Source of the DNA: a virus
Taxonomy: Duplodnaviria > Heunggongvirae > Uroviricota > Caudoviricetes
Virus record (IMG/VR): IMGVR_UViG_2671180415_000013
DNA length: 9,732 bases
Strand: one strand, 5' to 3'
Below, piece after piece: positions 1 through 9,732 of this stretch. The position numbers were made by a program, and so were the translations under genes. Under the pieces are notes generated by a model. That model did no database searches and had not been told where the DNA came from. It saw only the letters and a program-made list of their open reading frames with translations. Numbering within the stretch: the stretch's first letter is position 1; each line of letters opens with the position of its first letter.

Positions 1-91
1 GCTGTCGTTCTCAAAATCGGTGGAGCTGCATGACAAAGTCATCGGGCATTATCTGAACATAAAACACTATCAATAAGTTGGAGTCATTACC
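1..91 (+). mobile_element. IS1 right-end fragment (3' terminus with right inverted repeat at about 69-91); the window starts inside the element
   Basis: Positions 69-91 (atcaataagttggagtcattacc) match the IS1 right terminal repeat as I recall it, and are an imperfect inverse of the left repeat at 9643-9665. The preceding reading frame ends with the InsB C-terminus. Recognition is from memory, not a search. Confidence 0.8.
2..76 (+). CDS. insB: IS1 transposase InsB, C-terminal fragment (5' end lies outside the window)
   Basis: Frame 2 translates to ...LSFSKSVELHDKVIGHYLNIKHYQ followed by TAA at 74-76, which matches the InsB C-terminus as I remember it. The fragment is too short to appear in the ORF track. 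Confidence 0.7.
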   Translation: MSFSKSVELHDKVIGHYLNIKHYQ

Positions 92-223
92 AAACGGTTG
101 AAATGTATGCCGCTACTTACGGGTCCTGTAATCCTCTGAATAAACCAGAGGGAAAAGATGATTTCGACAAAATTTACCGCTTCTTGGAGGACCGCTATAT
201 CAAAAGCTTAGAGGACGCAGGGA

Positions 224-589
224 TCAAATCCCCAGTGAAGTCACCATTGTCCTGAGAACTTGCAGAACGTCATGATCATAACTTCCATCCAAACCGCGAC
301 GGCGAATTGCTTCTCGTATTACCGGAAGCAGTTCGCTGGAAATCTCGGTGCATATTTCACCTGATAATACGCTTGGCTCAAGTGAGAATATTGGTGAACT
401 TACGGTCTTGGTCTCGACAGTTTCAGAGTCAGTGCCAACATTATAAAGCTCAACGAAAGCGGTCTTGATTTTCCGGGCCAGATCTTTTGCTGGCTCGCTT
501 GCAATATCTTTCCCGATTTCTCGCAGCACAGAATGCAATGTATGAGCTGCTGTTTTCTGTACATCAGACGGTAAATCTTTAAATTCCAT
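224..589 (-). CDS. hypothetical protein (about 121 aa), function unknown
   Basis: ORF track 224..601. The internal ATG at 587-589 (MEFKDLPSDVQ...) is preceded on the minus strand by GAGG with a 6-nt spacer, so I prefer it to the ATG at 601. Its start lies 12 nt past the stop of the upstream small ORF. I recognise no family. Confidence 0.5.
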   Translation of the reverse strand: MEFKDLPSDVQKTAAHTLHSVLREIGKDIASEPAKDLARKIKTAFVELYNVGTDSETVETKTVSSPIFSLEPSVLSGEICTEISSELLPVIREAIRRRGLDGSYDHDVLQVLRTMVTSLGI

Positions 590-600
590 CGTCAGCCTCA

Positions 601-753
601 TCAGTCAGTGTTTCTGGCTAACCAGCAACGCGCGCCAGATTCGGTTTTAAACGTTTTGCTTTTGGTATACGTCATGGCGGTAAACGTTCCATCCTGGTTA
701 GGGAACACGCCGCACACCAGAGATTCGTTGTTGCCAAGATCGATAGTATCCAT
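601..753 (-). CDS. hypothetical small protein (about 50 aa from the internal ATG; the tracked ORF extends to 807)
   Basis: ORF track 601..807. The ATG at 751-753 (MDTIDLGNNES...) is preceded by GAGG with a 5-nt spacer, whereas the ATG at 805-807 has no recognisable SD. The SD-start context (atgaggtcagcATG) closely resembles that of the next gene (atgaggctgacgATG). Short, with no recognised family, so the coding call is weak. Confidence 0.35.
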   Translation of the reverse strand: MDTIDLGNNESLVCGVFPNQDGTFTAMTYTKSKTFKTESGARCWLARNTD

Positions 754-932
754 GCTGACCTCATTTCCCCTTAACGCCGGGGTGGCGGAACAAAAAACCT
801 GCTGCATAGTTAAAGATTGAACCCTGCCGTCATGTTCTTACGCCTCGGGCTGGCTACTTAACCCCTGACCACTGTCTGGTAACTCGAAGTATTGCCCTGC
901 ATTCTGTGGGGCGGGGTGGGTTGACGCCTGAA

Positions 933-977
933 ACAATAGCATCATTATTTTTTTTGATGTAAATAGCATCGCTATTG
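933..977. promoter_or_regulatory. Operator-like palindromes in the intergenic region downstream of the toxin gene (possible OL-like repressor sites)
   Basis: 961-977 AAATAGCatcGCTATTG is an inverted repeat with 6-bp arms and a 3-bp spacer. 933-949 ACAATAGCatcATTATT is a degenerate copy. Both resemble the perfect palindrome AAATAGTatcACTATTT at 2072-2088 in the repressor/cro intergenic region. Confidence 0.4.
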
Positions 978-990
978 TTTTTTGTTGGGG

Positions 991-1016
991 CAAGAAAAAA
1001 CCACCCTAAGGTGGTT
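991..1016 (-). terminator. Rho-independent terminator for the leftward repressor-antitoxin-toxin operon
   Basis: On the minus strand the stem AACCACC / GGTGGTT (plus coordinates 999-1016, 4-nt loop) is followed by TTTTCTTG. It lies 17 nt beyond the parE-like stop at 1033. The plus-strand reading of the same hairpin has no T-tract. Confidence 0.5.
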
Positions 1017-1032
1017 CTGTCGGCGGGAATAA

Positions 1033-1323
1033 TTAACTGTTTTTGCCTGGATACTGTCTTCGAGAATGCACAATATTTACTACTTCTATGCTTGATGCTG
1101 TTACTCGGTAAAGGATGATGTAGTTAGGATGAGTTACAATTTCACGAAGACCAAGAACTCGCTCGCTTGGAGGATACAGGTAAGGATGCTCTGTGAGCGG
1201 CAAAACGGATGTTTCAATTCGAATTTTCATTCTGCGTGCTGCCGCGGGATTTTCTTTAGCTATGTAGGCTACGATCTGGCGCAAATCATCACGAGCAGAT
1301 GGTAGCCATAAAACGGGTAACAT
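1033..1323 (-). CDS. parE: Type II toxin-antitoxin toxin, ParE/RelE family (96 aa)
   Basis: Translation MLPVLWLPSARDDLRQIVAYIAKENPAAARRM...LREIVTHPNYIILYRV...IEVVNIVHSRRQYP has the size and conserved pattern of ParE toxins. Its ATG (1321-1323) overlaps the stop of the upstream antitoxin ORF by 1 nt (TAATG). Confidence 0.85.
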   Translation of the reverse strand: MLPVLWLPSARDDLRQIVAYIAKENPAAARRMKIRIETSVLPLTEHPYLYPPSERVLGLREIVTHPNYIILYRVTASSIEVVNIVHSRRQYPGKNS

Positions 1324-1517
1324 TATTCACCTCTGTGAGTTGCAGCAGCAATTTGGGCAATAATTTGTTCCATTTCCGCCATTACCTCATCATGCGGAAT
1401 CGCCGGGCGGGGATCCGCGAGGCTTGCTGCTACTTTGGCCCGCAGCCATTCGTTGTAACTATTTTCTTGCTCAACTGTCTCAAATTCTGAAACCATTGGG
1501 GAAAGGACTGTACTCAT
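1323..1517 (-). CDS. paaA: Antitoxin, PaaA2-like small acidic antitoxin partner of ParE (64 aa)
   Basis: The 64-aa product MSTVLSPMVSEFETVEQENSYNEWLRAKVAASLADPRPAIPHDEVMAEMEQII... sits immediately upstream of, and is translationally coupled to, the ParE gene. SD GAGGAG lies 9 nt upstream of the ATG. It resembles the PaaA2 antitoxin of E. coli O157 prophage paaR-paaA-parE modules as I recall them. Confidence 0.7.
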   Translation of the reverse strand: MSTVLSPMVSEFETVEQENSYNEWLRAKVAASLADPRPAIPHDEVMAEMEQIIAQIAAATHRGE

Positions 1518-1536
1518 TTTACATATCTCCTCTGAT

Positions 1537-2037
1537 TTAGGCGCGACGGCCTTTTTGTGCAGCTAACCACCGCGCAACCGTACGATCCATTGATTCTTTT
1601 TTATCTTTCATCTCCTGAAGCATGTGTTCTTGATCTTCTTTCGGAAAAGCTCTGAACGTATGGATTAAATCTCGTTCCATCGGCTCTACGGCAAACGGTA
1701 GTTCATCCTCTGTTTGTTCTGTGTCTGCTGGTAATGCGACTATGTTATCTTGCTGTGGTTCTCGACAATACATCCTTGCAATTTGCAGCAAATCTACCAT
1801 GTCTGGCCTGATTGACTCAGGGGGAACTTTCAGTAAGCCAGCAAACTTTAGAACAGCCTCAAGGTTTAGTGGGGTTTGACCATTTAGGTAGTGACTTACC
1901 GCCCCTTGTGTTGAAAACCCCATAATTTCCGCCGCACGTTCCTGAGTCAATCCCAACTGAGATTTCTTTGCCATCCAGATTTCTTTCAGTCTTCTGGCGG
2001 CGTTGAGGTCGGTGTCTGACAATGATTTTCTTTTCAT
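1537..2037 (-). CDS. paaR: Prophage repressor with a lambda cI-like N-terminal HTH domain and no LexA/S24 peptidase domain (PaaR2-like), about 166 aa
   Basis: The N-terminus MKRKSLSDTDLNAARRLKEIWMAKKSQLGLTQERAAEIMGFSTQGAVSHYLNGQ... aligns by eye with the lambda cI N-terminus (...[47 protein letters not shown]...). The C-terminal ~85 aa are acidic and too short for an S24 domain. The tracked ORF extends to a GTG at 2067; I prefer the ATG at 2035-2037 from the cI alignment, but the start is uncertain. It is first in the operon with the antitoxin and toxin. Confidence 0.8.
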   Translation of the reverse strand: MKRKSLSDTDLNAARRLKEIWMAKKSQLGLTQERAAEIMGFSTQGAVSHYLNGQTPLNLEAVLKFAGLLKVPPESIRPDMVDLLQIARMYCREPQQDNIVALPADTEQTEDELPFAVEPMERDLIHTFRAFPKEDQEHMLQEMKDKKESMDRTVARWLAAQKGRRA

Positions 2038-2148
2038 ACATCCAATTCTAATAAGATTGCTAATCACTTTGAAATAGTATCACTATTTACTTTTAAAAAT
2101 AACAGTGCTATTAATTATGCATTGGTAACACATCACATAGGGCGGATT
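2038..2148. promoter_or_regulatory. Divergent immunity control region (PRM/PR-like) with operator palindromes
   Basis: Perfect 17-bp palindrome AAATAGTatcACTATTT at 2072-2088, and a related degenerate site at 2097-2115. A candidate rightward promoter is TTTACT (2086-2091), 17-nt spacer, TATTAA (2109-2114), overlapped by both sites. It lies between the leftward repressor gene and the rightward cro-like gene. Confidence 0.6.
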
Positions 2149-2412
2149 ATGAATCTTGGAGAATATTTGCATCATTTTCATATAACCCAGAGTTCATTTG
2201 CTGAGATTGTTGGCGCATCCCAAGGGATGGTCAGCCACGTTATAACGGGGCGTGCAAAACTTACAGGAGAAAAAATATTACGTTGGTGTGAAGCAACGGG
2301 ATGGGTGGTGACCCCACATGAGATTGACAGTAAAACCTACCCCAACCCAACTGACGGCTTGCCTGCTGAGTTTCAGGCTAACACACAACCATCGGCGGGG
2401 GTTGATTCATGA
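2149..2412 (+). CDS. Cro-like HTH regulator (YdaS-like), about 87 aa
   Basis: MNLGEYLHHFHITQSSFAEIVGASQGMVSHVITGRAKLTGEKI... is a small HTH protein transcribed divergently from the repressor. The tracked ORF starts at a TTG at 2122; I prefer the ATG at 2149, preceded by agggcgg. Its TGA stop overlaps the ATG of the next gene (ATGA at 2409-2412). Confidence 0.7.
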   Translation: MNLGEYLHHFHITQSSFAEIVGASQGMVSHVITGRAKLTGEKILRWCEATGWVVTPHEIDSKTYPNPTDGLPAEFQANTQPSAGVDS

Positions 2413-2834
2413 AAATCAAGCATGAACACATCCGCATGGCGATGAAAGCCTGGGCGCATCCGGACGGTGAAAAAGTTCCGGCAGCTGAAATAACCAGGGT
2501 TTATTTCGAACTGGGAATGACGTTTCCGGTTCTGCATAACGACAGCAAGCACAACACGCTTTATCTCAACACCCAAAAGATTTTCCGTTGGCTGGATAAA
2601 GACACCCCTGACGCTGTTGAAAAAATTCAGGCGTTGTTACCTGCGATCGAAAGGGCAATGCCACCTCCGCTGGTGGCTCGAATGCGCAGCCACAGTTCAG
2701 CTTATTTTCGGGAACTGGTGGAGACGCATGAACGACTGGTGAGAGACGCTGATGATTTTGTCGCAGTGGCAATCGCCGGTTTCAATCAGATGAACCGTGG
2801 TGGCCCGGCAGGAAATGCTGTGGCAGTACATTGA
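2409..2834 (+). CDS. YdaT-like protein (CII functional analogue in Rac-type prophages), 141 aa
   Basis: The N-terminus MKIKHEHI... and the ~140-aa size match my recollection of Rac YdaT. It sits directly after the cro-like gene with an ATGA overlap. Family assignment is from memory. Confidence 0.65.
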   Translation: MKIKHEHIRMAMKAWAHPDGEKVPAAEITRVYFELGMTFPVLHNDSKHNTLYLNTQKIFRWLDKDTPDAVEKIQALLPAIERAMPPPLVARMRSHSSAYFRELVETHERLVRDADDFVAVAIAGFNQMNRGGPAGNAVAVH

Positions 2835-2905
2835 CTGACAATAGCCATATCGAATCGCTCCCGGCAACTCGTGAGTAAAAAGATTCGGTATCAGAAGAGG
2901 TGAGT

Positions 2906-3970
2906 ATGGCTAACGCCTGGCTCAGATTATGGCATGACATGCCAAATGACCCTAAGTGGCGAACAATTGCCAGGGTGTCAGGGCAGCCAATTGCAACAGT
3001 GATGGCAGTGTATATCCACCTCCTGGTGAGCGCGTCACGAAATGTCACGCGAGGTCACATTGATGTCACGACAGAAGATTTGGCAAGTGCGCTCGACGTG
3101 ACAGAAGAGGTAATTGATTCAATTTTGCAGACGATGCAGGGGCGGGTACTTGATGGTGATTTAATCACTGGATGGGAAAAACGCCAGGTGCTTAAAGAGG
3201 ACAACGGCAATATTTCGCAAACCGCAAAATCTCCTGCAGAGCGCAAGAGGGCGCAGCGAGAGAGGGAAAGAAAGCGGGAACAAAATGGCGATTGTCACGG
3301 CGCGTCACGAAATGTCACGCACATGTCACGACGAGTCACGACAGATACAGATAAAGATACAGATAAAGAAGATCAAAACACTATGGTCCATGGCGTAAAA
3401 AACGCCACGAACCAGGCAGGGGATGTTCAGACCGTCAATCCTGGTCAGCCAGCAGGCTCGACACCGGAAGCCGATTCAGCGTATGCGCTGAAAGCCGATT
3501 CGGGCGCTGTGCAGCAGGTGATGACCGCAAGGCCGGAGCAATCACTCCAACTGCAGCAGCCTGAAGCCGATTCCGCCATTCAGCGGGAAGCCGATCGGGT
3601 AGCCCCGGAAAACACCGGGCAGCCTGTGGGACGAGTGGATTATCCGGATGTGTTCGAACAGGTCTGGCGGGAATACCCGTTGCGTGCCGGGGCAAACCCG
3701 AAGAAATCCGCATTCAGTGCCTGGAAGGCCAGATTGCGCGAGGGGGTGCCACCAGAGACCATGCTGGATGGTGTGAGGCGTTACGCGAGATACCTGGCGG
3801 CGACCGGGAAAGCGGGAACGGAATTTGTTCAGCGAGCGACGACGTTTTTTGGGCCGGACCGGAATTTTGAAAACCCCTGGTTGCTCCCGGTAAGCGGCAC
3901 GAACAACCAGCGTTGTGTGAATCATATTTCTGAACCGGATACCGAAATTCCGCCGGGATTCAGGGGGTGA
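2906..3970 (+). CDS. Phage replication initiator (lambda O-like / replisome organiser) with internal origin iterons, about 354 aa
   Basis: The N-terminus MANAWLRLWHDMPNDPKWRTIARVSGQPIATVMAVYIHLL is typical of enterobacterial prophage replication proteins. The gene contains the phased GTCACG repeats and lies immediately upstream of the DnaC-like gene. SD AGAGG precedes the ATG at 2906; the tracked ORF begins at a GTG at 2900. Confidence 0.7.
   Translation: MANAWLRLWHDMPNDPKWRTIARVSGQPIATVMAVYIHLLVSASRNVTRGHIDVTTEDLASALDVTEEVIDSILQTMQGRVLDGDLITGWEKRQVLKEDNGNISQTAKSPAERKRAQRERERKREQNGDCHGASRNVTHMSRRVTTDTDKDTDKEDQNTMVHGVKNATNQAGDVQTVNPGQPAGSTPEADSAYALKADSGAVQQVMTARPEQSLQLQQPEADSAIQREADRVAPENTGQPVGRVDYPDVFEQVWREYPLRAGANPKKSAFSAWKARLREGVPPETMLDGVRRYARYLAATGKAGTEFVQRATTFFGPDRNFENPWLLPVSGTNNQRCVNHISEPDTEIPPGFRG
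3031..3070. repeat. Iteron cluster 1 (four GTCACG/GTCACA hexamers at about 10-11-bp phasing), putative origin element
   Basis: GTCACG at 3033, 3043 and 3065, and GTCACA at 3054. The 20-mer cgcgtcacgaaatgtcacgc at 3031-3050 is repeated exactly at 3301-3320. Confidence 0.6.
3291..3367. repeat. Iteron cluster 2 (five GTCACG hexamers at 9-11-bp phasing) followed by an AT-rich tandem 12-mer; putative ori core
   Basis: GTCACG at 3294, 3303, 3313, 3324 and 3334. The 12-mer gatacagataaa is tandemly duplicated at 3344-3355 and 3356-3367, giving an AT-rich stretch next to the iterons, as in lambda ori within the O gene. Confidence 0.6.
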
Positions 3971-3976
3971 TGTGGC

Positions 3977-4725
3977 ATGAAAAACATTGCGGCAGCCGGG
4001 GTTCTTGAACGTATTCACAGNNNNNNNNNNNNNNNNNNNNNNNNNNNNNNNNNNNNNNNNNNNNNNNNNNNNNNNNNNNNNNNNNNNNNNNNNNNNNNNN
4101 NNNNNNNNNNNNNNNNNNNNNNNNNNNNNNNNNNNNNNNNNNNNNNNNNNNNNNNNNNNNNNNNNNNNNNNNNNNNNNNNNNNNNNNNNNNNNNNNNNNN
4201 NNNNNNNNNNNNNNNNNNNNNNNNNNNNNNNNNNNNNNNNNNNNNNNNNNNNNNNNNNNNNNNNNNNNNNNNNNNNNNNNNNNNNNNNNTGTGTTCAGCG
4301 GTAAAACCGGCACCGGGAAAAATCACCTTGCAGCGGCGATGGGTAACCGGCTGATGGCGAAGGGGCGCAGCGTGATTATCGTCACCGAGTCTGATGTCAT
4401 GAGCGTGTTGCATGACAGCTACGACAACGGCAAATCCGGTGAAAAATTTTTACAGGAGCTTTGCGGGGTTGATTTGCTGGTCCTGGATGAAATAGGCATT
4501 CAGCGGGAGACGAAAAACGAGCAGGTGGTATTGCACCAGATAATTGATCGCCGGACAGCATCACTGTGCAGTGTCGGGATGTTAACAAACCTGAATCATG
4601 CCGCAATGAGCACGCTTCTTGGTGAGAGGATTATGGACCGCATGACCATGAACGGTTGTCGGTGGGTGACGTTTAACTGGGATAGCTGGCGTTCAAATGT
4701 CAGCTTTCCGGGAGTTGTGAAGTAA
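3977..4725 (+). CDS. dnaC: DnaC-like helicase loader (AAA+ ATPase), interrupted by an N-run
   Basis: The N-terminus starts MKN like E. coli DnaC. After the gap, FSGKTGTGKNHLAAAMGNRLMAKGRSV...LLVLDEIGIQRETKNEQVVLHQIIDRR...GMLTNLNHAAMSTLLGERIMDRM...WVTFNWDSWRS closely matches DnaC Walker A/B and C-terminal motifs as I recall them. SD GGGGGTGAT precedes the ATG at 3977, and the O-like stop is at 3968-3970. The two sides of the gap are in different frames, so the N-run length is not the true length. Confidence 0.85.
4021..4289. other. Run of 269 N (assembly gap or masked segment) inside the DnaC-like gene
   Basis: Literal n characters in the sequence. Confidence 0.99.
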
Positions 4726-4746
4726 TTTTTGTTGGAGGATGTTTTA

Positions 4747-5472
4747 ATGGAAACTGTATTTGACGCACTGAAAGCACTGAAAAGAGCCTCTTCACATGTG
4801 GTGGCGTCCCGCCTTGGAATCAGCCGTGAAGATGCGGTCAACGAACTGTGGAAACTGAAGCGCCGTGGTGAAGCGGATAACAAGGGTTCGATGTGGTGGC
4901 TGATTCAGGCTGGTGAAAGTGAACCAGTGTCACCGGTACCGAAAGTGACAGCGCAAATGCTGACTGAGGCGATTGAACAACATGGCCCACAAACGGCGGA
5001 TGAGCTGGCACTGATGTTCGGGATTACCTCCCGCCGGGCGAATTCATCGCTGGCCATGGCAATCAGCAAAGGGCGTCTGATTCGCGTGAATCAGGGCGGT
5101 AAATTTCGGTACTGCATACCGGGCGCTGATTTACCGGCAGAGCCGAAAGCCGCATCCATAGCGGAAACGGATGGTAAAGTCTTTCCTCAGCCAGCAGGTG
5201 TTGCGTTACCGGTACAGGAAGCTGCAACACAGGAAGAAATTAAAACAGAAACTGTGGCGGACATTGTGCAGTCGTTGCCATCGTTCACCGAAACGCAAGC
5301 GGATGACCTGGTTTTACCATCGCTGCATATGGCAAACCGCGAACTGCGTCGGGCGAAAAGTCATGTCCAGAAGTGGGAGCGTGTCTGCGCCGCGTTGCGG
5401 GAGCTGAACAAGCACCGGGATATTGTTCGACAGATTGTCGATTCCTCCGGTCGTATTGTGTCGGAAAAGTGA
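4747..5472 (+). CDS. hypothetical protein with two tandem helix-turn-helix-like modules and a C-terminal charged/helical tail (about 241 aa)
   Basis: ORF track 4729..5472. I prefer the ATG at 4747, with GGAGGAT 8 nt upstream. Two similar segments (...[23 protein letters not shown]... and ...[29 protein letters not shown]...) suggest duplicated DNA-binding modules. Family not recognised. Confidence 0.55.
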
Positions 5473-5487
5473 TTGCCGGGGGCGCTT

Positions 5488-5892
5488 ATGGCAAAAGTAT
5501 TTACACAGGAAGAGCGGGAAAAAATTAAGGGGCAGGTTGTTGAACTCGTACGCCAGAGTGGGCGCGAGACGTTACGACAACTGGAAGCTAAAANNNNNNN
5601 NNNNNNNNNNNNNNNNNNNNNNNNNNNNNNNNNNNNNNNNNNNNNNNNNNNNNNNNNNNNNNNNNNNNNNNNNNNNNNNNNNNNNNNNNNNNNNNNNNNN
5701 NNNNNNNNNNNNNNNNNNNNNNNNNNNNNNNNNNNNNNNNNNNNNNNNNNNNNNNNNNNNNNNNNNNNNNNNNNNNNNNNNNNNNNNNNNNNNNNNNNNN
5801 NNNNNNNNNNNNNNNNNNNNNNNNNNNNNNNNNNNNNNNNNNNNNNNNNNNNNNNNNNNNNNNNNNNNNNNNNNNNAGTGCCGGAAGAGTGA
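5488..5892 (+). CDS. hypothetical protein whose interior is lost in an N-run (N-terminus MAKVFTQEEREKIKGQVVELVRQSGRETLRQLEAK...)
   Basis: ATG at 5488 follows a G-rich stretch. The frame appears continuous across the N-run to a TGA at 5890-5892 only if the N-run length is exact, which is unknown. Product unknown. Confidence 0.35.
   Translation: MAKVFTQEEREKIKGQVVELVRQSGRETLRQLEAKXXXXXXXXXXXXXXXXXXXXXXXXXXXXXXXXXXXXXXXXXXXXXXXXXXXXXXXXXXXXXXXXXXXXXXXXXXXXXXXXXXXXXXXXXXXXXXXVPEE
5594..5876. other. Run of 283 N (assembly gap or masked segment)
   Basis: Literal n characters in the sequence. Confidence 0.99.
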
Positions 5893-6007
5893 AGTTATGC
5901 AGCGTGTACCGGCTTTCTATCAGGGTGATTTTCAGGAGGCGGTACTGTGAGTGAAATTAGCTATCAGGCTTCAATTACCGCTGGCATTCGCATCAAAGGA
6001 GAGGAGC

Positions 6008-6364
6008 ATGGAAATAAAACCAGAAGATGAGTTAAGCAATATTGTTTTATTTCCGGTAAAAGAGGATAACCCTCGTAATCAGGTTAATTTTCTTTATGAG
6101 CCATCGGAAAGACCATATTGCCATCACGCTTCTGTCCGGGTTGACGAAAAAGAGCGTCAGGTCCGCTGTAAAATTTGCGGTGCAGTTGTGGAGCCATTTG
6201 ACTGGATGCTCTCTGTGGCGAAAAGAGAAACCAGACTGGCAGATGATGTAAGGCTCTTGCGCCAGGAGGAGCGGGAAAGGCGAAAAAATATAGAAAAGCT
6301 AATCCAGATTGAGCGTAATGCGAAAGCGCGGATACGCAGGGTGACAAAATATAGCCCCGAATAA
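6008..6364 (+). CDS. hypothetical small protein with a putative zinc-ribbon (C-x-HH ... C-x2-C) and a basic coiled-coil C-terminus (about 118 aa)
   Basis: Strong SD AAAGGAGAGGAGC lies immediately upstream of the ATG at 6008; the tracked ORF starts at a GTG at 5951. Motif PYCHHASVRVDEKERQVRCKICG, then an R/E/K-rich helical tail. Family not recognised. Confidence 0.55.
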   Translation: MEIKPEDELSNIVLFPVKEDNPRNQVNFLYEPSERPYCHHASVRVDEKERQVRCKICGAVVEPFDWMLSVAKRETRLADDVRLLRQEERERRKNIEKLIQIERNAKARIRRVTKYSPE

Positions 6365-6578
6365 TCAAGGTTATTTCTGGAAGTCAAGTCGTGAGTGATG
6401 AGGACTAACAAATACGGTGAACTCGATAAAGAGATTCAGGACGAACTGGAGGCCAGGAATGATTGACAAATCACCAAGTGAGTTCAGCTACAAAGATTTA
6501 TTGTCATAACGGGTTATGAGATCGACTTGGTGCGTGATATTCTTCGGGCCAGTTTGCTATGCGCCACCATGAGATGTT

Positions 6579-8411
6579 ATGGCCCGCATGTTTGATACAT
6601 TAGGATTTTACATTATGAATGTGCAACATTTTGATTTTTTTACAGATAATGAGTTTTCTAATCTGGAAAGATATCAAACTTGTAAAGCCATGGCCAAAGG
6701 TTATGCGGGCAATTACAAAACCGGGCAGTCAAGGTTGATGCATGCCCGCTCATACTGCTTCAGCATCGTAGCTGCATATTGGGATACCCTTGCAAAAAAG
6801 CAAAAAAGCAGCATTAAAATGAGGGCAGTACCGCACACTGTTTACATAGAAGACATTCCATGTGATGCACGCGAGCTCGCTGAACGAACAGGTGAGCTTA
6901 TTGCTCAATTTCCGGCGGAGGACGCTGGATATCTGATTGGGTCAATTTATACGGTAATGCTGCCATCCGCTTACCGTTCGGAATTGGGGGCTTACTATAC
7001 CCCCCCACCTTTGGTAGCGCGTCTCTTGGACCTGGCTGAAAAGTCTGGTGTTGATTTTTCTCATGCATCGGTTATTGATCCTGCGTGTGGTGGCGGTGCA
7101 TTTTTGGCACCAGTAGCCATTCGAATGTTAAAAAAAGACAAGGGGTCTTCCCCTGAATGGATGTTGAGGAGAATCAGTCGTCGTTTAAAGGGGATAGAGA
7201 TCGATCCATTTGCGGCTTGGATGAGTTTGGTATTGCTCGAATCTGTACTAATGCCACTATGTGTAAAGGTAAAACGTAGATTGCCTGAAGATACAATTAT
7301 TGTTGCTGATGCGCTTCAGCAAGATAAATTTTCTGGTTATGATCTTGTGGTAGGGAATCCGCCTTACGGACGTGTCACTCTCGATATTAAAACGAGAGAA
7401 AAATATTCTCGTTCGTTATTTGGTCATGCAAATCTATATGGATTGTTCACCGACTTAGCTGTTCGCATGGTTAAAGAGAAAACAGGAGTTATTGCATTTC
7501 TTACGCCAACTTCTTTTCTTGGTGGGCAGTATTTCACCGCGCTGCGAACCCTTTTGACCGAAAAAACTACTCCGTATGCCCTTGATTTCGTCACTGACAG
7601 GGATGGGGTCTTTGACGATGTTCTCCAGGAAACAATGTTGACAGCATTCAAGGCGGGAGAACATAAAGTTCGGGCCCAGGTATCCTCACTTGTCCCTAAG
7701 GGGTTGAACAAAGCAAAAATTGAGAAAATAGGTAATGTTGATATAGAAAAAGGTGGAGCAACGTGGCTTTTGCCACGCGTTAAAGATGATGCCTGTTTTC
7801 TTAATGTATTAAAACAGATGTCTACGCGTTTAGCTGATCTGGGATACTCAGTCTCTACAGGTCAGTTAGTCTGGAATCGATTTAAGTCGCAGTTGCGTAC
7901 GACGAAAGGAAAAAATAGCTACCCATTAGTCTGGGCGGAATCAATAACTTCAGCTGGTTTTCGTTTTAGTGCAGACAGAAAAAATCATGTTCCCTATATC
8001 GATATAACCCCACAACAGGGTTTCCTTGTGACAAAATCTGAATGTGTGCTTGTTCAGCGGACAACATCGAAGGAACAGGACAGAAGGATTTTAGCGGCAA
8101 TTTTACCTCAGGGATTTATAGATGAAACTGGTGGCGTAGTAGTTGAAAACCATATTAATATTGTATATTCAAACGGATTGTTCTCTGCGGTTCGCCCTGA
8201 TGTTATTGATATGCTACTTAATTCGCATGTTGTCGATCGGGCGTTCAGGTGTATAAGCGGAAGTGTTGCTGTTTCGGCCTATGAATTGCATTCAATCCCG
8301 TTGCCTTCTCTGGAGCAGGTGATGGAGATTCAATCGTTAATTGATGCTGGCGTCCACAGACGGATTATTGAGAGAACTATCGCTGGTTTCTATGGAGTGA
8401 TGATTGCATGA
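6579..8411 (+). CDS. N6-adenine DNA methyltransferase, gamma-class (Eco57I/TaqI-like N6_Mtase fold) with a C-terminal target-recognition region
   Basis: Motif order X then I then IV: GAYYTPPPLVARLL (motif X), VIDPACGGGAFLAP (AdoMet-binding motif I), DLVVGNPPYGRV (catalytic NPPY motif IV), followed by about 300 aa of putative TRD. The start is uncertain among ATGs at 6579, 6588 and 6615. The TGA stop overlaps the ATG of the next gene (ATGA at 8408-8411). Confidence 0.9.
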   Translation: MARMFDTLGFYIMNVQHFDFFTDNEFSNLERYQTCKAMAKGYAGNYKTGQSRLMHARSYCFSIVAAYWDTLAKKQKSSIKMRAVPHTVYIEDIPCDARELAERTGELIAQFPAEDAGYLIGSIYTVMLPSAYRSELGAYYTPPPLVARLLDLAEKSGVDFSHASVIDPACGGGAFLAPVAIRMLKKDKGSSPEWMLRRISRRLKGIEIDPFAAWMSLVLLESVLMPLCVKVKRRLPEDTIIVADALQQDKFSGYDLVVGNPPYGRVTLDIKTREKYSRSLFGHANLYGLFTDLAVRMVKEKTGVIAFLTPTSFLGGQYFTALRTLLTEKTTPYALDFVTDRDGVFDDVLQETMLTAFKAGEHKVRAQVSSLVPKGLNKAKIEKIGNVDIEKGGATWLLPRVKDDACFLNVLKQMSTRLADLGYSVSTGQLVWNRFKSQLRTTKGKNSYPLVWAESITSAGFRFSADRKNHVPYIDITPQQGFLVTKSECVLVQRTTSKEQDRRILAAILPQGFIDETGGVVVENHINIVYSNGLFSAVRPDVIDMLLNSHVVDRAFRCISGSVAVSAYELHSIPLPSLEQVMEIQSLIDAGVHRRIIERTIAGFYGVMIA

Positions 8412-9490
8412 ATCTGCCTGTTGTTCCCCCATTGAATGTTATCCGGGAAAGATTACAATTAATTTTCCCTGAAGGGACTGAGAATCGTGGATATTTAATT
8501 CGGGAAATAGCTGCAAAAACAATTTTTGTCATGTTTTATGCTGGTGCGGTTGAGGGGCTGGGGCGATGGATAAGGCCCAGCCAGGTTGTAAGTATGGGAG
8601 ATTCGCAGGCTGCTCTTACTGATGATGCGTCCAGAGAAAGCTGGGTAAAGATGACTTTCTCTAAACAAAAGATAAGGCCTGCTGATGCATGGTATGCGGA
8701 AAATACGCGTGAGCCAATACGTGATGAAACTATAAAAAATGGCCTAATACCTTGCAATGCAATTGTTGAGCGTAAAGGTATACCCACCACATCCTCTCGT
8801 CCTCGTTACAGTTTGAATCGCTCTTTTGCAGCACTCTTTGATGCCGGGCTTGAAGGAGATTCGCTGCTGAGTGCAATAAGTTCCTGGCAAGAAAATCATT
8901 TGAACAAAGCCGCTCTTGCTAGGTTGCGTTTATTGAAATCAGGGGCAGTGATTGCTGCTGATGCCGTAGTCGTCACTTTCCCAAATGGAGAGAAGAGAAC
9001 TTTAGCTCCGGGCCCGTCAAGTACAATAGCTAAGGCCGTCATCGAAGTTTTTGCTCCTAATTTTCTTAAGAATCCAACTGTGCTCTGGTTGTCTGAATCC
9101 GGGAATAAAGTTGTTGCTCAGGATGATGTATTGGCAAAAGCATTGGGGCTGAATATTGATGCCTCAAAAGCACTTCCAGATATTATTTTGATTGATTTGG
9201 GAGAGGACCGAACGGGTTCGGACATGCTTGTAGTTTTCACTGAAGTAGTTGCGACAGATGGGCCTATAAACAGGGAACGAAAAGTTACTCTCACTCATTT
9301 GGCTATTGACGCTGGGTTCAGCGAGAAAAATCTTGCATTCCTTACGGCATTTATGGACAGAAGTGCTCTGCCTTTTAAAAAGGCAATACCAGAATTGGCG
9401 TGGGGATCTTATGCATGGTTTGCTTCTGAACCGGAGCACTTAATTGATCTTCGGGATGGTTATCCGGTAAAGATCAGCCAGAGAAAATGA
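8408..9490 (+). CDS. Uncharacterised 360-aa protein translationally coupled to the methyltransferase; candidate cognate restriction endonuclease (possibly BsuBI/PstI-like), unverified
   Basis: Confident as a gene: long ORF, same strand, 4-nt overlap with the MTase stop, GGAG 10 nt upstream, same AT-richer composition as the MTase. The function is inferred only from context; I cannot point to a canonical PD-(D/E)xK motif by eye. The segment DIILIDLGEDRTGSDMLVVFTEVVATDG is a possible degenerate nuclease core. Confidence 0.6.
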   Translation: MNLPVVPPLNVIRERLQLIFPEGTENRGYLIREIAAKTIFVMFYAGAVEGLGRWIRPSQVVSMGDSQAALTDDASRESWVKMTFSKQKIRPADAWYAENTREPIRDETIKNGLIPCNAIVERKGIPTTSSRPRYSLNRSFAALFDAGLEGDSLLSAISSWQENHLNKAALARLRLLKSGAVIAADAVVVTFPNGEKRTLAPGPSSTIAKAVIEVFAPNFLKNPTVLWLSESGNKVVAQDDVLAKALGLNIDASKALPDIILIDLGEDRTGSDMLVVFTEVVATDGPINRERKVTLTHLAIDAGFSEKNLAFLTAFMDRSALPFKKAIPELAWGSYAWFASEPEHLIDLRDGYPVKISQRK

Positions 9491-9642
9491 CCAAAGTTTG
9501 ATATCCGCCACGCCCTGAAGGATGGGGGTTTTACGGTGCACTGGATAAAAAATCGGTTTCATAGATTTGCCCACCGTGGTATACGCCTGCGATAAAAACT
9601 TTATTGTCATCAACGGCAAAAGCAATAATTGTTCTGTGGCGG

Positions 9643-9732
9643 GGTGATGCTGCCAACTTACTGATTTAGTGTATGATGGTGTTTTTGAGGTGCTCCAGTG
9701 GCTTCTGTTTCTATCAGCTGTCCCTCCTGTTC
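9643..9732 (+). mobile_element. IS1 left-end fragment (left inverted repeat 9643-9665 and start of insA); the window ends inside the element
   Basis: GGTGATGCTGCCAACTTACTGAT at 9643-9665 matches the IS1 left terminal repeat as I recall it. It is followed by tttagtgtatgatggtgtttttgaggtgctccaGTGgcttctgtttctatcagctgtccctcctg, which encodes the InsA N-terminus. Confidence 0.85.
9698..9732 (+). CDS. insA: IS1 InsA N-terminal fragment (3' end lies outside the window)
   Basis: GTG at 9698, then ASVSISCPSC..., the InsA zinc-finger N-terminus. Confidence 0.75.
   Translation, partial: MASVSISCPSC

Follow-up and report, generated by a model that had tools for sequence, protein, structure and literature searches.

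IMG/VR record IMGVR_UViG_2671180415_000013 is a 9,732-nucleotide stretch of viral DNA (Caudoviricetes), the whole of which we refer to as the window. It starts with the last part and ends with the first part of the insertion sequence (IS) IS1, both on the plus strand, and between these two ends lie phage genes for immunity, replication, a toxin-antitoxin pair and a DNA methyltransferase. What kind of object is bracketed in this way? A note made earlier from the sequence alone had offered three answers, namely a composite IS1-bounded unit, two independent IS1 events that truncated the arms of a prophage, or one IS1 on a small circular molecule. Comparison with public genomes leads us, with high confidence, to a form of the second answer: the segment is what remains, in the Shigella sonnei chromosome, of a decayed lambda-like prophage, and it was isolated by two separate IS1 events, of which we read the left one as a simple insertion and the right one as a deletion joint. 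The observation made in the earlier note is confirmed, and its interpretation is partly supported.

The segment in Shigella sonnei chromosomes

The window aligns at 99.9-100% identity (blocks 1-4020 and 4290-5593) and at 99.9% identity (block 5877-9732) with 12 chromosome-sized public records of 4.6-5.0 Mb, both IS1 junctions included. These records were found through exact matching of two window proteins, the restriction endonuclease and the 125-aa early-left protein, and one of them, CP010829.1 (L018; L and H handles denote records compared with the window), is Shigella sonnei FORC_011 (PMC5447701). Each of the 12 carries the segment in the chromosome, at the same locus between two full 768-bp directly oriented IS1 copies, hereafter IS1#1 on the left and IS1#2 on the right. 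The layout, the junctions and the end points of the deletions described below are read directly from these assemblies.

The assignment of the window ends to IS1 is confirmed. Both match IS1 with 0 mismatches (Table 1), and the RefSeq annotation under both BLAST matches is "IS1-like element IS1A/IS1B family transposase". Chance cannot account for exact matches of 90 nt, while direct relative orientation alone has a 50% prior. The canonical 768-bp IS1 reference used here aligns over its full length at 99.2-99.7% to the IS1 copies in the 12 chromosomes. Only the InsB C-terminus and the InsA start fall inside the window; in the relatives, both copies carry calls of 91 aa and 125/167 aa, or a 232-aa fusion, with matches to PF03811, PF12759 and PF03400 (InsA/InsB; Zn_ribbon_InsA, HTH_Tnp_IS1, DDE_Tnp_IS1), and the terminal inverted repeats are imperfect and ~23 bp long (GGTGATGCTGCCAACTTACTGAT / GGTAATGACTCCAACTTATTGAT). 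A full 768-bp IS1 is present at both places in 12/12 chromosomes, and IS1#1 and IS1#2 are identical to each other over 768 bp in L004, L008 and L010.

The two IS1 ends in the window differ in length by one base (91 vs. 90 bp), and the window is probably a whole short-read contig, the assembler having halted about 90 bases into each multi-copy IS1. IS1 is the commonest insertion sequence in Shigella, in which reference chromosomes contain 229-348 IS copies and IS elements cause deletions between homologous copies (PMC7373316), and a short-read contig would end here because IS1 is present in very many copies. The fate of the same region in other assemblies seems consistent with this account. The exact endonuclease protein occurs in 4,192 blocks of the assembly collection, and the longest contig bearing it is 5-10 kb in 2,158 of these blocks and exceeds 1 Mb in 102, while other short contigs of the region (L012, L019-L022) end no more than 5 bases from the same IS1 junctions. 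Ends of ~90 bp of IS1 are typical of a short-read assembler at a repeat, an option absent from the earlier note, and the practical use of this result is that direct IS1 contig ends of ~90 bp should be taken in the first instance for breaks that a repeat caused in the assembly rather than for signs of a mobile unit or a circle.

The window contains two runs of N, at 4021-4289 (269 nt) and 5594-5876 (283 nt), which mask some of the DnaC-like loader gene and the greater part of the DUF977 gene. The sequence that they replace measures 267 and 243 bp, respectively, in each of the 12 near-identical chromosomes. The ~9.55 kb given earlier for the distance between the IS1 ends is therefore right as a count of window letters (9,551) but not as a length, the real unique segment being ~9,509 bp. 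One substitution, 8289C, is private to the window and gives His571 in the methyltransferase, where A (Asn) is found in 17 of 17 related loci; the window is thus S. sonnei-type yet comes from none of the 12 strains.

Coverage of the window stays below 80% in each of 5,426 complete E. coli genomes, and when 200 nt across each junction were compared with the same genomes, IS1 and phage flank were found only apart, never joined. PLSDB contains no plasmid covering >30% of the window, and a degenerate pattern of the right junction and three outer-left junctions gave one chance match, in Kluyvera cryocrescens, among the GTDB species representatives. Complete S. sonnei genomes in public databases already contain the sequence, and as a feature it is ordinary: a prophage remnant bounded by IS1, of the same kind as IS-eroded Shigella prophage remnants in general. 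It carries little weight as a discovery, since the erosion of prophages and chromosomal genes by IS1 has been described as a hallmark of Shigella (PMC7373316).

Histories of the two IS1 junctions

The bases adjoining the segment had been quoted correctly as AAACGGTTG at 92-100 and CTGTGGCGG at 9634-9642, and the suggested search for target-site duplications in the 12 chromosomes succeeds at the left IS1 (9 bp, in 5 genomes) but not at the right IS1, where there is none. On the outer side of the left IS1 three contexts occur. In context (a), found in L006, L009, L010, L013 and L017, IS1 is preceded by ...GATAAAACGGTTG and followed by AAACGGTTGAAA..., which is a perfect 9-bp duplication with phage DNA (Rha) outside. 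In context (b) (L003, L005, L008, L011 and L018), IS1 is preceded by ...CACGGGTCG, a flank inside ynfF, and adjoins a truncated ynfF, and in context (c) (L004 and L016) it is preceded by ...AAAACCGGAAA and adjoins dicB. The empty site with a single AAACGGTTG is present in two near-identical prophages, L019 and L015. The left IS1's own 9-bp duplication, together with these empty sites, indicates a simple insertion, in which IS1#1 would have transposed into the early-left region and generated the duplication AAACGGTTG.

The fullest layout is that of L017, in which ynfH-ynfG-ynfF-ynfE' is followed by an IS3-family element, then 'ydfE-ydfD-dicB and a further IS1 (IS1#0), and onward from there by 1,244 bp with Rha, IS1#1, the window segment, IS1#2 and ydfI, with all IS1 copies direct. 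IS1#0 in L017 has its own duplication AACCGGAAA, just as IS1#1 has AAACGGTTG. L016/L004 and L018-type genomes are without exactly 1,244 bp plus one IS1 between IS1#0 and IS1#1, and in L013 ynfF' is joined to IS1#0 with the Rha interval kept. Context (c) is the exact product expected of IS1#0 x IS1#1 recombination, and context (b) is an L013-type structure after the same recombination. Contexts (c) and (b) stand on different single-nucleotide backgrounds (7199A and 7199G, respectively), which by parsimony suggests that the 1.2-kb interval was lost at least two times independently. The base at this position in the window itself is G (7199G), which makes (a) or (b) the probable context on its outer left side. 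We infer from this the order of events, in which the outer side of IS1#1 would later have been eroded in some lineages (7/12) by recombination with the IS1 1.2 kb away and by deletion into ynfF. The locus is a clean example of stepwise IS decay, from insertion with duplication through IS1 x IS1 recombination to deletion into ynfF. Another rearrangement of the same left end is seen in L020 (ABPYEJ010000019.1), in which window positions 97-830 adjoin Mu-like tail/baseplate genes, not the immunity region.

The right junction is the same in 12/12 chromosomes, reading ...GTTCTGTGGCGG, IS1 (768 bp), CATATAACAAAACATATAG..., with no repeated 9-mer: the inner 9-mer is CTGTGGCGG, against an outer flank of CATATAACAAAAC... 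and an outer 9-mer of CATATAACA. The outer side corresponds to K-12 position 1,630,961, which falls in the spacer between ydfI and ydfJ, 48 bp upstream of ydfI. On the inner side IS1#2 cuts a gene for a 103-aa RelE/ParE-family toxin, which is intact at L001 15721-16032; the window match ends at 15832, and the remnant is translated as RHRTIIAF...SSAP*. The intact relatives H1, H2 and L007 run on past this point with ParD, DUF968, RusA, Q, tRNAs, lysis, terminase, portal and capsid/head genes. Since there is no target duplication at IS1#2, we infer an IS1-mediated deletion of the whole right prophage arm, which would have taken the antitoxin, Q, lysis and structural genes as well as ydfJ, with IS1#2 marking the joint. 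This may have been an adjacent deletion from one IS1 or a recombination between two, the present structure fitting either.

The proposal of independent IS1 events that truncated the prophage arms is therefore borne out, with a left IS1 that has its own duplication and a right IS1 that joins phage DNA to the ydfI-ydfJ spacer, and the comparison with prophages lacking IS1 that had been recommended yields an empty left site (L019/L015) and a right arm deleted from ParD to the head genes. Two points weigh against this account. The DNA beyond each IS1 in the window's own strain is deduced from near-identical genomes, and all 12 genomes were found through proteins encoded by the segment, so that strains without the segment, or carrying it elsewhere, would be invisible.

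To the right of the segment, a further full direct IS1 (IS1#3), with no target duplication, lies at a distance of 8.2 kb in L003-L011 (~20226-20993), and the genes between IS1#2 and IS1#3 are ydfI-ydfZ-rspR-ydfG-dcp-ydeJ-ydeI-dgcZ-mgtT. Up to 4 direct IS1 copies are found within ~22 kb at this locus.

Other explanations for the bracketed segment

An addition that is compatible with a remnant left by two IS1 events is that the segment has been retained because PaaA2-ParE and the PstI-family restriction-modification pair kill cells that delete it, which we consider unlikely. Both modules are present and intact, and the core stays even as both prophage arms have been erased. In CP-933P of E. coli O157:H7, paaA2-parE2 is addictive and has been proposed to limit rearrangements in the immunity region (PMC8630535), and the present locus is a possible natural test bed for the proposal that PaaA2-ParE guards prophage immunity regions against rearrangement (PMC8630535). 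On the other hand, all genomes examined were found via segment proteins, so loss could not show, and several IS-rich remnants persist by chance. In L017 (CP060117.1) a 1.9-kb deletion corresponding to window positions 5113-6999 has removed the DUF1627 C-terminus, DUF977, a 137-aa open reading frame (ORF) and the first 140 methyltransferase codons, while an intact 360-aa endonuclease gene is kept beside the truncated methylase. Either the pair is inactive in this strain or the truncated methylase still protects; an endonuclease next to a 5'-truncated methylase casts doubt on the activity of the pair and argues against an active killer pair. A stronger version, in which the core is kept because its deletion is lethal and an excised 10.3-kb lambda-dv-like circle persists for a time by means of its own initiator, iterons and loader, seems to us very unlikely.

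It is highly improbable that the window stems from a small circle with a single IS1 in the source strain, set free by recombination between the two IS1 copies and kept up by the initiator, iterons and loader, even though a short-read contig of such a circle would look like the window. The release step put forward in the earlier note is mechanically sound, given that the flanking copies are identical over 768 bp and that the adjacent 1.2-kb interval appears to have been lost through IS1 x IS1 recombination at least two times. The excision product would be a ~10.3-kb circle with initiator, origin repeats and loader, although a replicating form of it is speculation. A module of this kind can drive a plasmid, as in lambda-dv and Rac oriJ, and the window resembles these plasmids in carrying a self-contained lambdoid immunity and replication module (Cro-like, CII-like, initiator with internal origin, loader). 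Unlike them, the segment has no extrachromosomal form on record (PLSDB, <=30% cover) and includes a CI-like repressor. This PaaR-like repressor, in which a Pfam domain search detected no S24 peptidase domain and hence no autocleavage domain, should keep the rightward promoter and the replication genes off, and the 12 chromosome-sized assemblies hold the segment chromosomally between two IS1 copies. A single IS1 inserted into a circle was also considered and rejected: the inner flanks at 92-100 and 9634-9642 are not a duplication, as would follow from simple insertion, and the intact relatives hold both points ~9.5 kb apart in the same order.

The third possibility is a Tn9-like composite transposon, in which the segment and its two IS1 copies moved in as one unit, and we regard it as exceedingly improbable. 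Its layout is the part that stands: there are two full direct IS1 copies, their ORFs fit intact InsA/InsB, and all four ends are present, so that transposition as a unit would be mechanically possible in future. Tn9 consists of directly repeated IS1 flanking its cargo, and the r-determinant of R100/NR1 is excised as a circle by IS1 recombination. The window is like them in that two direct IS1 bracket ~9.5 kb of cargo, excision being the very reaction proposed in the earlier note, but unlike them in that there is no sign that the segment ever transposed or excised, the IS1 copies having arrived or acted separately and one being a deletion joint. The outer flanks do not match: the left one is AAACGGTTG or a deletion joint, and the right one is CATATAACA. 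No duplication surrounds the whole unit, whereas the left IS1 has one that encloses this copy only. Intact relatives and the cargo are collinear, the cargo remains within its native prophage surroundings, and it occupies one locus in 12/12 chromosomes, with no second context. Its junctions are absent from all 5,426 complete E. coli genomes, and the unit is on no PLSDB plasmid.

An assembly artefact (a chimera, or a false join where IS1 copies collapsed) has practically negligible probability, for although mis-joins occur where contigs end in repeats, the whole window and both junctions are collinear at 99.9-100% with 12 independent assemblies and the contig stops inside IS1, with no join across the repeat.

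Gene content and related prophages

Domain and PHROG matches agree with the cargo reported earlier, namely immunity, origin, toxin-antitoxin and methyltransferase genes, with no N-like, Q or late genes in the window (Table 1). No integrase, att sites or late genes were found in the window or adjoining it in the 12 chromosomes, which is why we call it a remnant. It is collinear with prophages carrying int, xis, Q, lysis and head genes, and the order of repressor/Cro pair, CII-like gene, initiator and loader is preserved.

Table 1. Features of the window, with coordinates, strand and supporting matches.
Feature	Position	Strand	Evidence or remark
Right end of IS1 (InsB C-terminus and right inverted repeat; "left IS1", IS1#1)	1..91	+	0 mismatches to last 91 bp of IS1, ending ...ATCAATAAGTTGGAGTCATTACC
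AAACGGTTG, inner copy of the left IS1's 9-bp target-site duplication	92..100	.	same 9-mer directly outside IS1 in 5 genomes
Phage early-left gene, 125 aa (121 aa in some records)	224..601	-	phrog_33007, E 5e-80; no Pfam match
ydfA-like DUF1391 gene, 50 aa	601..753	-	PF07151 call at matching position in L003-L011; 90% nt identity to K-12 ydfA
ParE-family toxin	1033..1323	-	PF05016, E 2e-17; 93 residues aligned, mostly identical, to ParE2 of CP-933P, PDB 5cw7
PaaA2-type antitoxin	1323..1517	-	PF21217, E 3e-23; match to PaaA2, PDB 3zbe
PaaR-like HTH repressor, CI position	1537..2067	-	PF01381 HTH_3 only; PHROG transcriptional repressor families; 166 aa from 2037 in relatives
Cro/YdaS-like regulator, divergent from repressor	2122..2412	+	weak HTH_3 match; 87 aa from 2149 in relatives
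YdaT, CII-like regulator	2409..2834	+	PF06254; E 4e-79 to PDB 3c4r, E 3e-70 to 8bt1
Replication initiator (phage replisome organizer), with putative origin	2900..3970	+	phrog_3729 "replication initiation protein", E 3e-250; RefSeq name from H1 homologue
Two arrays of iteron-like GTCAC(G/A) repeats (4 + 5, 10-11 bp apart), then AGATACAGATAA x2	3034..3342	+	pattern count
DnaC-like helicase loader, partly N-masked	3977..4725	+	intact 248-aa L008 product: phrog_50, E 2e-79; PF01695/PF00308
DUF1627 (ydaW-like) gene	4747..5472	+	PF07789, E 4e-93
DUF977 gene, mostly masked	5488..5950	+	PF06163 on 140-aa product at matching position in relatives
N6-adenine DNA methyltransferase (Eco57I/N6_Mtase), type II	6579..8411	+	PF07669, PF02384; RefSeq "HsdM family class I SAM-dependent methyltransferase" in H1
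BsuBI/PstI-family type II restriction endonuclease	8408..9490	+	PF06616, E 9e-45; PF17728, E 1e-30
3' remnant (last 36 codons and stop) of 103-aa RelE/ParE-family toxin gene, cut by right IS1	9531..9642	-	intact gene in L001
CTGTGGCGG, bases adjoining right IS1	9634..9642	.	no duplicate on IS1's other side
Left end of IS1 (left inverted repeat and InsA start; "right IS1", IS1#2)	9643..9732	+	0 mismatches to first 90 bp, GGTGATGCTGCCAACTTACTGAT...

With ydfI on one side and ynfE/ynfF on the other, the remnant has the orientation of the cryptic prophage Qin in E. coli K-12, and from this position and orientation we assign it putatively to the Qin site, both remnant ends being deleted. Like Qin, it occupies the interval from ydfI/ydfJ to the rsp-ynf genes, is defective and has lost its arms; ydfA and dicB-ydfD-ydfE have homologues at 83-92% nt identity, and a RelE-type toxin gene stands in the same relative place. 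Qin has dicA/dicC and no replication genes, whereas the remnant has PaaR-PaaA2-ParE, YdaS/YdaT, an initiator and a DnaC-like loader, together with a restriction-modification pair of the PstI family. The remnant ends in IS1 deletion joints, not att sites, and, with its int end lost, its integration into ydfJ is putative. The closest intact E. coli relatives (H1, H2, L014 and L015) are integrated beside potC, not at the Qin site, and have the same PstI-family restriction-modification moron at 99% identity, which suggests that moron and early region circulate among lambdoid prophages at different att sites.

Further to the left, a 1.27-kb IS3-family element joins ydfE' to 'ynfE (L017 oriented, ~4190-5455), and the K-12 interval L024 28845-37601 (intQ, rspAB, ynfA-D, speG) is absent between ydfE' and 'ynfE in L017. 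Complete loss of the speG locus has been described in S. sonnei (PMC3213128), and it thus seems that the deletion of speG, an antivirulence gene, abuts the prophage remnant. An IS2 insertion in ydfE shared with K-12 Qin had been suggested by an alignment that stops at the IS2E boundary, and was rejected, as the S. sonnei element is a different 1.27-kb IS3-family element with no match to IS2E and ydfE continues ~290 bp further.

In the immunity region, matches to PF21217, PF05016 and HTH_3 fall on three consecutive minus-strand genes, giving the predicted order of a PaaR-PaaA-ParE three-component system. In CP-933P, PaaR2 works as CI, YdaS as Cro and YdaT as CII (PMC8630535). The window has the same paaR2-paaA2-parE2 / ydaS-ydaT gene order, with ParE, PaaA2 and YdaT as clear homologues and a regulator in the CI position, but its proteins are diverged alleles and its chromosomal site and neighbours differ. 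In L021 (AAVEHV010000132.1) an IS91-family element (Zn_Tnp_IS91 / Y2_Tnp, 399-aa transposase) is inserted in ydaT, at window ~2697.

The initiator, iterons and helicase loader that the earlier note had placed on the segment are all supported (phrog_3729, nine GTCAC(G/A) repeats and phrog_50, respectively), and with the loader intact in relatives, we take the predicted replication module on this one fragment to be real. The initiator is 356 aa as called in the window, while public gene calls start two codons later (354 aa). The repeat arrays, at 3034-3072 and 3294-3342 within the initiator gene, contain all nine plus-strand copies in the window; on both strands together, GTCACG was found 9 times vs. 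3.0 expected, and 1 of 200 shuffles reached 9.

Beyond the replication genes, the methyltransferase and endonuclease genes overlap by 4 bp and, as adjacent genes, would form a type II restriction-modification pair of the BsuBI/PstI family. A plus-strand ORF without assigned function (137 aa) is also present between the DUF977 and methyltransferase genes. The endonuclease lies on 2-5 kb contigs in 1,661 of the 4,192 blocks, and L022, a 5,859-bp contig, is the matching left half; it seems that another repeat, probably an IS, splits the segment near 5950-6000 in a large sublineage. Close to this point, at window 5933, L008 has a C>T change that introduces a stop in the DUF977 gene, giving a product of 135 instead of 140 aa.

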